Part shown: piece after piece, positions 16,790-17,364 of the stretch
Numbering within the stretch: position 1 is the stretch's first letter
Layout: each line of letters starts with the position of its first letter
Virus record (IMG/VR): IMGVR_UViG_2617270992_000014
From: a virus
Lineage: Duplodnaviria; Heunggongvirae; Uroviricota; Caudoviricetes
Direction: 5' to 3' (one strand)
DNA length: 41,104 nt
The notes under the pieces: generated by a model
The model's input: only the letters and a program-made list of their open reading frames with translations
The model's database searches: none
What the model was told of the DNA's origin: nothing
Made by a program: the position numbers and the translations under genes

Positions 16790-17215
16790 ATGTTTGGTAT
16801 TTTCAAAAAGAAAACCCGCAAGGCCATTACTGAAGTAAAGAAAATGGAGAACCGCGACGCAGTGGAGGCGACCGTCTGGGGTGCGTATTCCATCGCATTC
16901 GCCGACGGCACCTGTGATGCGAAAGAAATCGCGGTGCTGGAGAAAACCATTGCAGCACTTCCTGCTTTTGCGCCGTTCTCCGGTGAGATTGCACAAATGA
17001 GTGCAAATATCCGCGCCCGTTATGAAGCGTCGCCGCGCTCTGCCAATGCCGAAGCTCTTCGTCAGCTGGCTGATGTTGCCGGTACTGATGATGCAGTTAA
17101 TGTGCTGTGCCTGTGTCTGGATATCGCTGACCAGGATGGCATTGGTCCGGATGAAGAAGCACAGCTCAAGAAAATTGCTCAGGCGCTGCAGTTACCGCTG
17201 GAGCAGTACCTGTGA
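16790..17215 (+). CDS. TerB-like (tellurite-resistance TerB domain) protein
   Basis: 141-aa ORF; WGAYSIAFADGTCDAKEIAVLEKTIA and LCLCLDIADQDGIGPDEEAQLKKIAQALQLP follow the two-lobed TerB pattern as recalled from TerB sequences. Confidence 0.55.
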   Translation: MFGIFKKKTRKAITEVKKMENRDAVEATVWGAYSIAFADGTCDAKEIAVLEKTIAALPAFAPFSGEIAQMSANIRARYEASPRSANAEALRQLADVAGTDDAVNVLCLCLDIADQDGIGPDEEAQLKKIAQALQLPLEQYL

Positions 17216-17364
17216 AAAGTGCGCGCCTTGTGCTGGCTGTCATCCTGCTGTTTCTGGTAGTGGTGGTGGATTTCACCGGACGGCTGATGTCGGTGCTGGC
17301 AGATGGCGTGCTGGTGGCGATGGCGCTGGTCGTGCTCCGGCCTTTACTGCGTAAATCTGAATAA
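17212..17364 (+). CDS. Candidate 50-aa hydrophobic membrane peptide translationally coupled to the TerB-like gene
   Basis: Own translation from a GTG overlapping the TerB-like TGA: VKSARLVLAVILLFLVVVVDFTGRLMSVLADGVLVAMALVVLRPLLRKSE; below the ORF-track cut-off. Confidence 0.3.
   Translation: MKSARLVLAVILLFLVVVVDFTGRLMSVLADGVLVAMALVVLRPLLRKSE

Follow-up and report, generated by a model that had tools for sequence, protein, structure and literature searches.

A phage P1-type tciA-tciB cassette ahead of the holin genes of a lambdoid prophage, and the structured leader RNA in front of it

What does a gene for a TerB-like protein, followed by a minute frame for a hydrophobic peptide, do next to the lysis genes of a tailed phage? 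Such a pair was described in an earlier note on the IMG/VR virus record IMGVR_UViG_2617270992_000014, a stretch of 41,104 nucleotides that we refer to as the window. We analysed the two genes, their neighbourhood and their relatives. By family matches and sequence identity the pair is the known and catalogued tciA-tciB (tciAB) cassette of phage P1 type and is not new; this locus adds one further copy. Sequence comparison likewise presents it as a self-contained optional cargo module of a prophage and not as a part of the lysis cassette. Temperate, virulent and jumbo phages of Gammaproteobacteria have all kept the cassette. The comparative data yield a testable model, in which a minimal membrane partner of a TerB domain would be made by translational coupling and would act in the lytic phase. 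A structured RNA that precedes tciA could matter more than the gene pair.

Gene tciA occupies positions 16790..17215 on the plus strand, from the ATG at 16790 to the TGA at 17213-17215, and encodes 141 amino acids. On the same strand tciB (17212..17364, 50 amino acids) starts with a GTG at 17212-17214 and ends with the TAA at 17362-17364. The list of open reading frames (ORFs) and the sequence gave both frames and the GTG/TGA overlap exactly as the earlier note had claimed. TciA matched the Pfam family TerB (PF05099) in two stretches with 30.5 bits (gathering cut-off 24.4, E=4.9e-7) and PHROG 632 'tellurite resistance' over its full length (1.3e-64); NCBIfam has no model for TciA or TciB. A profile of 12 phage homologues found the Klebsiella TerB structure 2JXU (E=1.1e-16, residues 14-138) and 2OU3 (E=3.5e-4), while the single TciA sequence, compared with the PDB sequences, did not reach 2JXU and gave spurious matches to polynucleotide phosphorylase alone. 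The AlphaFold2 (AF2) model of TciA, calculated with 38 homologues, had a predicted local distance difference test value (pLDDT) of 89.2 and a predicted template-modelling score of 0.84, and presented six helices after a disordered basic tail. The best Foldseek matches in the PDB were the TerB-like 2H5N (probability 1.00, template-modelling (TM) score 0.52-0.58) and 2OU3, these matches having modest TM-scores (0.45-0.58) and weak E-values (0.02-0.3). Across the 12 phage homologues, with identities down to 31%, the invariant residues included D23, A27, D39-G40, E46, D95, A113, I118 and E122, and G117 was nearly so. They form two acidic motifs of the ADG...E type, A-D39-G40...E46 and D116-G117-I118...E122, invariant or nearly so, and the two-lobed pattern with a conserved Asp segment in each lobe, read earlier from the letters of one sequence, was recovered in this alignment. 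The TerB call of the earlier note likewise held in the profile search and the structure prediction proposed there as checks. The basic tail (residues 1-19) has a net charge of +6, the remaining six-helix domain one of -11. The ratio of nonsynonymous to synonymous polymorphism (pN/pS) of tciA was 0.08, a strong constraint; the scan of viral contigs with the TciA alignment returned near-identical relatives only and served the selection tests, not the estimation of diversity.

Family matches and the predicted fold make TciA a TerB-fold protein. With TerB of the terZABCDEF cluster (Klebsiella 2JXU; plasmid R478) it shares the Pfam family, the all-helical fold and the two ADG...E-type motifs. In contrast to that cluster, no other Ter gene is nearby: none of terC, terD, terE and terZ was found among the neighbouring ORFs (Q, an ECs1072-family protein, two holins and an M15 endolysin), and the partner is a 50-residue protein instead of the multi-pass TerC. 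Judged by its gene content the locus is not a ter operon, and tciAB alone is not a tellurite-resistance operon.

TciB matched Pfam DUF3927 (PF13064) with 54.2 bits (cut-off 25, 1.4e-14) and PHROG 1470 'TciB-like inhibition of cell division or resistance to colicin' (3.3e-23). Its Shine-Dalgarno sequence GGAG (17200-17203) lies inside the end of tciA, 8 nt 5' of the GTG that overlaps the tciA stop as GTGA, so that positions 17200..17214 of the plus strand have the layout of a translational-coupling junction. In a selection test on 39 distinct 50-codon alleles, pN/pS was 0.47 in the tciB frame versus 0.81 and 1.50 in the other two frames, and 31, 23 and 48 variable sites fell on codon positions 1, 2 and 3. 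Two hydrophobic stretches, at about residues 6-19 and 25-42, stand on either side of a conserved DFTGR, and both termini are basic; this hydropathy points to a hairpin whose two ends face the cytoplasm. A scan of genome contigs with the TciB alignment gave three loci, the peptide patterns being too narrow. Family matches and substitution pattern identify TciB as a real, conserved and very hydrophobic protein. The small ORF of the earlier note was thus substantiated by its DUF3927 match, by its position directly after tciA in all relatives compared (below) and by the frame-specific substitutions.

Among related IMG/VR contigs tciB abutted tciA in 80 of 80, with an overlap of 4 nt in 67 and of 1 nt in 13, and an overlap or close abutment was likewise present in P1, P7, JLK-2012, Evi, N4-like phages and LIET2. 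Thirteen phage TerB loci were opened, with TerB proteins from 100% to 31% identical to the TciA of the window. In 11 of them a TciB-like hydrophobic ORF of 46-60 codons lay directly 3' of the TerB gene, at distances of -8 to +34 nt, and all 11 products have a basic start and a polar break that closes with Arg/Lys or Tyr, and finish with WP(L/V/I)(L/I/F/V)K. These 11 loci include the phage-plasmids P1 and P7, the lambdoid pPE4, JLK-2012 and Evi, virulent N4-like Salmonella phages, a jumbo Erwinia phage, a Pseudomonas Nickievirus and the Pantoea phage LIET2; within the Erwinia group and within the Pseudomonas group the TciB-like ORF was itself conserved. One of the two exceptions is the Vibrio phage vB_VpaP-MS02 (L015 78-1626), where no TciB-like ORF followed the TerB homologue and a gene for a TerC/Alx-family membrane protein lay directly 5' of it; the other, PMBT3, is considered below. 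E. coli strains with extra genes had the insertions after tciB, never between tciA and tciB. Two independent gene calls fuse TerB and DUF3927 (P0171, 196 amino acids; P0244, 197 amino acids), probably by frameshifts at the tciA/tciB overlap; one of these fusions carries the source name 'zinc-finger family protein'. The sole constant neighbour of tciA was tciB, and vice versa. The two genes travel as a unit through unrelated phage genomes.

The nearest described relative is the tciA-tciB-tciC group of P1 (AF234172; terB-upf69.4-upf69.6 in P7). P1 TciA is 85.1% identical to the TciA of the window over residues 1-141 (tblastn, E=5e-75), and the DNA also aligns. The TciB proteins are 48% identical and have the length class in common, R5, S27, P44 and the motifs VDFT...DG...WP, and also the start that overlaps the tciA stop. 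In the P1 record tciA, tciB and tciC are three genes with overlapping stops and starts, whereas the window lacks tciC, the 35-codon third gene: tblastn with P1 TciC gave a best E of 0.47, elsewhere in the window, and the gap between tciB and the holin gene consists of 88 nt of hairpins. TciC appears confined to P1 and P7. The cassettes differ also in their setting, that of the window lying in a Q-dependent late region before holins and that of P1 in the C1-controlled ban operon.

The annotation of tciA and tciB in P1 reportedly dates from the P1 genome paper of 2004. The window has the look of a phiP27-like lambdoid prophage, with the same holin pair and M15 endolysin as phiP27, and hundreds of E. 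coli genomes have prophage regions with 95-98% identity to its DNA; the whole stretch from tciA over tciB to the same adjoining holin was present in at least 155 complete E. coli genomes. RefSeq/PGAP names the products in the listed E. coli records 'tellurite resistance TerB family protein', 'DUF3927 family protein' and 'putative holin', and several phage records already label the tciB product 'TciB-like'. The expectation that routine annotation would miss the peptide was therefore wrong, DUF3927 being called in every listed E. coli genome, and the implied novelty did not survive, the pair being annotated in P1, catalogued by Pfam and PHROGs and routinely annotated. One close relative is PP818812, 'Actinobacillus phage vB_Apl-pPE4' (L002), with 95.6% DNA identity to the window over tciAB and the holin and a 100% identical TciA; its stated Actinobacillus host looks doubtful, the window itself matching E. 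coli prophages at 95-98%. As a separate observation, tRNA genes occurred near tciA in many unrelated phages (P1, P7, JLK-2012, E. coli prophages, jumbo Erwinia and Pseudomonas phages; loci L001, L010, L003-L005, L009, L013 and L014), and the order DNA methyltransferase - tRNA - tciAB was common to P1/P7 and E. coli prophages.

In the window the cassette follows the Q antiterminator gene (15067-15762) and a promoter-proximal terminator (15829-15844), and precedes holin genes at 17453 and 17781 and an M15 endolysin gene at 18107. Terminators flank it on both sides. Upstream, an intrinsic terminator at 16629..16658 on the plus strand, found by the terminator scan as hairpin GGGCTCGCTACGGCGGGCCT with a T-run, closes the preceding unit. 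Downstream, the terminator scan and the sequence gave two plus-strand hairpins (17374..17437), one at 17374-17395 and one at 17412-17427 plus TTTTTTATTT; the latter is terminator-like and thereby sets the cassette apart from the holin gene at 17453. This hairpin region was conserved with pPE4 and E. coli prophages. The interval between Q/pR' and the lysis genes is the classic slot for optional cargo in lambdoid phages. Elsewhere tciAB was far from lysis genes, in the ban operon of P1/P7, among early or replication genes of N4-like phages, and in jumbo phages; in JLK-2012 it precedes nanS-like genes, and insertions of unrelated genes part tciB from the holin gene in some E. coli strains. Natural deletion variants among the IMG/VR contigs (L108 3964-4002, L175 4645-4773) had lost tciAB and kept the holin gene. 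In L108 the first leader hairpin, P0, was joined straight to the hairpins before the holin gene, and in L175 the leader RNA through its helix P3 (both described below) to the final codons of tciB. A CRISPR interference screen of P1 scored tciA, tciB and tciC each as non-essential (PMC10695390), and the operon is missing from about half of one subgroup of P1-like plasmids (PMC9603915). The tciAB cassette is dispensable. Neither TciA nor TciB matched any of the lysis-protein families in Pfam and PHROGs, and by family membership and gene order tciAB is not lysis machinery. The earlier note had set TerB domains outside the standard lysis cassettes, with which we agree; the link to lysis that its wording implied was not borne out, given the cargo slot, the remote positions elsewhere, the insertions before the holin gene and the deletions that spare it. 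The reading as a cargo module follows from a pair that is kept together in very different phages while its neighbours change.

As to the time of expression, a consensus-only scan of the plus strand from 15600 to 18200 predicted no sigma-70-like promoter, and tciAB lies downstream of Q and of a pR'/tR'-like site. In P1 and P7 the cassette belongs to the C1-repressed ban operon, and it is also carried by obligately virulent phages. TciA peptides have been detected in P1 virion preparations purified in caesium chloride, from lytic growth (PMC9024508). The missing promoter prediction, the flanking terminators, the C1-controlled copy of P1/P7, the virulent carriers and the virion peptides together argue for expression in the lytic phase rather than for lysogenic conversion. 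The cassette would be transcribed within the Q-dependent late transcript, the terminators around it being read through by Q-modified polymerase; the leader would gate translation initiation of tciA, whose Shine-Dalgarno sequence AAAGGA is at 16775-16780, and TciB would be made by translational coupling to TciA. The stretch 15768-15851 on the plus strand, just 3' of Q, gave weak isrK/isrJ-like matches and ends in a strong terminator (15829-15844 with a T-run); it resembles the short pR'-tR' transcript that is the target of Q. The homologous region of pPE4 has a full isrK match and a C4 antisense RNA (L002 1982-2183).

For the function we propose, by analogy with other TerB systems, that the P1-type tciAB of this lambdoid prophage is a Q-dependent late and translationally coupled pair, with TciB as the membrane partner of TciA and a role against membrane or ion stress in the lytic phase, a reading to which we give slightly better than an even chance. 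TciB would be the partner of TciA in the inner membrane, where it would recruit or receive the amphitropic TerB domain, and the pair would sense or buffer inner-membrane or ion stress during lytic growth. Possible effects are that the infected cell is kept energised until programmed lysis, or that a membrane-depolarising attack is resisted. Membrane association or an amphitropic nature has been reported for TerB domains. The integral membrane protein TerC was found to have TerB as a partner (Turkovicova et al. 2016, as cited in PMC11003894), DjlA has a TerB-like domain directly after its membrane helix, and the TerB proteins of the defence systems Dionysus, Shango and Bunzi, for which membrane surveillance was proposed, adjoin membrane or pore-forming proteins. 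Since TerB domains recurrently pair with membrane elements, TciB may be a minimal partner of this kind, and both the strict linkage of tciA and tciB and the TerC-TerB arrangement of the Vibrio phage fit this reading. The reported TerB-TerC complex, DjlA, DinB of Dionysus, SngA of Shango and BnzA of Bunzi share with tciAB the combination of a TerB domain and a membrane element; in tciAB, however, this element is a separate minimal protein, and J-domain, helicase/ATPase and pore-forming toxin are absent.

Several points weigh against this proposal. The role in membrane stress rests on analogy, our literature searches found no paper that tests the function of tciA or tciB, and the authors of phage Pollock called the role of TciA in a lytic phage unknown (PMC4319500). 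The TerB locus of PMBT3 has neither TciB nor TerC nearby. The topology predictions for TciB were divided: hydropathy gave the two hydrophobic stretches and with them the hairpin, while the AF2 model was a single continuous helix (residues 2-48, pLDDT 92). Two Asp residues conserved in enterobacterial TciB are missing in the Erwinia version, which leaves an ion-binding role for these residues unsupported. A weak promoter active in the lysogen may exist, being compatible with a scan for consensus promoters.

Other explanations of the cassette were weighed against the same evidence. A use in warfare between phages, by which tciAB would exclude superinfecting phages or counter a membrane-acting defence of the host, is unlikely in our view, and overlaps with the membrane-stress proposal to the point of being compatible with it. 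TerB domains recur in validated defence systems with proposed membrane surveillance, ter clusters are associated with phage inhibition, and the cassette is variable and often lost, as is cargo for defence or counter-defence. However, at E<=0.01 neither TciA and TciB nor the products of the two ORFs upstream matched a model of PADLOC-DB, which includes the TerB-containing Shango, and the enzymatic or pore-forming partners needed by the known TerB defence systems are absent here. Rather improbable is a moron for lysogenic conversion, expressed in the lysogen and giving the host resistance to tellurite or to pore-forming colicins. The historical name speaks for it, as do the homology to terB, a gene of the ter cluster with its links to resistance against tellurite, colicins and phages, the bracketing by terminators known from classic morons, and the slot, which is that of other lambdoid conversion genes. 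Yet no promoter-like site was present upstream on the plus strand, P1 and P7 place the genes under control of the C1 repressor, and lysogenic conversion would be meaningless for the strictly virulent phages in which the pair is conserved. The other ter genes, stated as required for resistance (PMC8421299), are absent from the neighbourhood.

More improbable still is an accessory role in lysis timing, in which TciB, TciA or both would modulate the adjacent holins in an antiholin-like or holin-stabilising manner. The position directly 5' of two holin genes and the M15 endolysin gene, an arrangement kept in the at least 155 E. coli genomes, suits this idea, and many holin regulators are small membrane proteins, as TciB is. 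TciB matched no holin family in Pfam or PHROGs, however; the pair is remote from lysis genes in P1/P7, N4-like and jumbo phages, and in JLK-2012 it is followed by nanS-like genes. Between tciB and the holin gene stands a terminator-like hairpin, and insertions at this point as well as deletions with an intact holin gene occur in nature. Finally, TciA could be the sole product and the 50-codon ORF a chance frame in GC-rich DNA: it is short, starts with GTG, and overlaps the same DNA as another long chance ORF (17001-17354, 117 amino acids). This is effectively refuted by the Pfam and PHROG matches of TciB, the homologous ORF after TerB genes whose proteins are 31-44% identical to the TciA of the window, the retention in all 80 close relatives, the frame-specific substitutions and the GGAG 8 nt 5' of the start.

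The region immediately upstream of tciA was far better conserved than the gene itself. Conservation and covariance delimit a non-coding leader RNA of about 130 nt (133 nt, 16660..16792, plus strand) that ends at the tciA ATG. Its identity was 78-98% among phages in which TciA is just 41-43% identical (JLK-2012 86%, Evi 78%), and its 5' part was present in 879 of 5426 complete E. coli genomes. All pairings lie on the plus strand: the 5' hairpin P0 (16660-16664 with 16671-16675), the main helix P2 (16694-16709 with 16763-16779), whose 3' strand includes the Shine-Dalgarno AAAGGA of tciA, and P3 (about 16714-16724 with 16743-16753). Two further pairings would make it a pseudoknotted RNA. PK1 joins the loop of P0 (16666-16670, CGCCC) to the segment between P3 and P2 (16755-16759, GGGCG); PK2 joins 16686-16693 (CCACAGAG, just 5' of P2) to the loop of P3 (16734-16741, CUCUGUGG). 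PK2 could be an alternative conformation and not a simultaneous pseudoknot. In each lambdoid or Klebsiella copy examined (Evi, JLK-2012, LMessi, CharmingMan, Klebsiella phages 1 and 5 LV-2017, and L212) a terminator of varying sequence stood 12-18 nt before the leader. The upstream regions of P1 and P7 had no structured leader.

A covariance model built from 19 leader sequences found diverged copies, which run up to the start codons of different genes: before a KilA-N gene (a second copy in pPE4, and L136), before antirepressor-like and Rha-like genes in Stx-type phages (L167, L115, L043), before an HNH endonuclease gene in CharmingMan (a weak match), and before the TerB gene of the jumbo Erwinia phage (L013). 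Leader copies were placed at L100 77-213, L002 5785-5917, L167 8797-8934, L043 4600-4733, L136 1345-1486, L222 222-355 and L013 1069-1200. In the variant before a Rha-family regulator the main helix presented a compensatory change from GGGGUGAGC/GCUCACCC to GAAAUGAGC/GCUCAUUUC. PK1 occurred as CGCCC:GGGCG, CGCUC:GAGCG, CGCAC:GUGCG, CCGCA:UGCGG and UCUCAC:GUGAGA, and one of its pairs (alignment columns 10 and 156) as C-G, A-U and U-A. PK2 occurred as CCACAGAG:CUCUGUGG, CCGUAGAG:CUCUACGG, CCACCGAG:CUCGGUGG, CCAAAGA:UCUUUGG, CGAGAG:CUCUCG and CGUCGA:UCGACG. Both were spotted by eye, are not in the covariance model and were added to alignment A10 for the counts. In this alignment, which was fitted to the nested helices and whose members come from few lineages, 96.6% of the cells formed a standard pair, versus 43-51% with the partners slid by 1-3 columns; 26 pairs were changed on both sides versus 6-11, and the covariation score was 0.316 versus at most 0.098. 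In 500 shuffles the observed values were never reached. With hand-set segment boundaries, the mean complementary run between cognate and non-cognate segments was 5.1 versus 3.5 for PK1 and 7.3 versus 4.8 for PK2.

Two other natures of the leader were considered. A peptide-coding leader was ruled out by indels that are not multiples of three and by the shifting frame relative to tciA. A repeat or recombination site at the level of DNA is disfavoured: many of the conserved pairs are G-U and would be A-C mismatches on the other strand, for which reason the structure should be specific to the RNA of the sense strand. The small RNAs (sRNAs) named Pas, near prophage TerB genes, were described with terminators in a preprint; the 3' end of the leader has none, and by this trait the leader would differ from the Pas sRNAs as described there.

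On comparative grounds the leader is a probable cis-regulatory RNA for cargo genes of the late region. It appears to be undescribed: Rfam 15 (4227 families) gave no match overlapping it at E<=5 in the window and none to the diverged copies in five loci at E<=1, and literature searches found no description of the motif. The more specific view, that it belongs to an undescribed family of doubly pseudoknotted cis-RNAs which controls the translation of optional late-region genes, we hold tentatively, at a little short of an even chance. Control of translation is suggested by the pairing of P2 with the ribosome-binding site, the 3' strand of P2 including the Shine-Dalgarno sequence in most copies; in two diverged copies, however, P2 ends just 5' of the Shine-Dalgarno sequence and not over it, which weighs against such gating. 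The family would extend over lambdoid phages and at least one jumbo Erwinia phage, and over TerB-type tciA genes of two lineages, Rha, KilA-N, antirepressor and HNH genes. With riboswitch-like or protein-binding 5' leaders it shares the compact, multi-helix, pseudoknotted form that ends at a start codon with the Shine-Dalgarno sequence paired; it differs in the missing Rfam match and in downstream genes that are mutually unrelated (TerB, Rha, KilA-N, antirepressor, HNH), so that no ligand can be guessed. The trigger may be a ligand, a protein of the phage or of the host, or a processing of the RNA. If the family holds, a common regulatory RNA would serve several cargo genes, tciAB among them; and a leader that is both real and undescribed would give the 'moron' genes of lambdoid late operons a control element in common, also in Stx-type phages of pathogenic E. 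coli. In Stx2a-converting phages and PPompW prophages (e.g., LC567818 15686-15727) just the first approximately 45 nt of the leader were present. At the break these records annotate the IS110-family element ISEc20, an apparent insertion into the leader.

Some further elements of the window and its relatives were noted. As a whole the window corresponds to the IMG/VR contig IMGVR_UViG_2617270973_000009 (41103 bp), whose loci L020 and L152 have tciA and the leader at coordinates identical to those given here. The stretch 16561-16659 on the plus strand gave a weak match to STnc100 (20.3 bits, E=0.1, gathering score 47) and ends in the terminator at 16629-16658; this may be an sRNA gene that has decayed or diverged. 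In a JLK-type contig a full STnc100 (139 bits) follows downstream of tciAB (L167 3780-3992), and a 2026 preprint links STnc100 and PasD sRNAs with the neighbourhoods of prophage TerB genes. Between Q and this stretch are two convergent ORFs, 15898-16134 on the plus and 16043-16513 on the minus strand, which overlap by about 90 nt; one of them encodes a PHROG 3501 protein, the other a phage-associated protein of the ECs1072 family (NF033230, 3e-46). Further upstream, a strong match to the Sok antitoxin RNA (RF01794, 118.8 bits) at 12284-12459 on the plus strand indicates a putative hok/sok-type toxin-antitoxin locus in the prophage.

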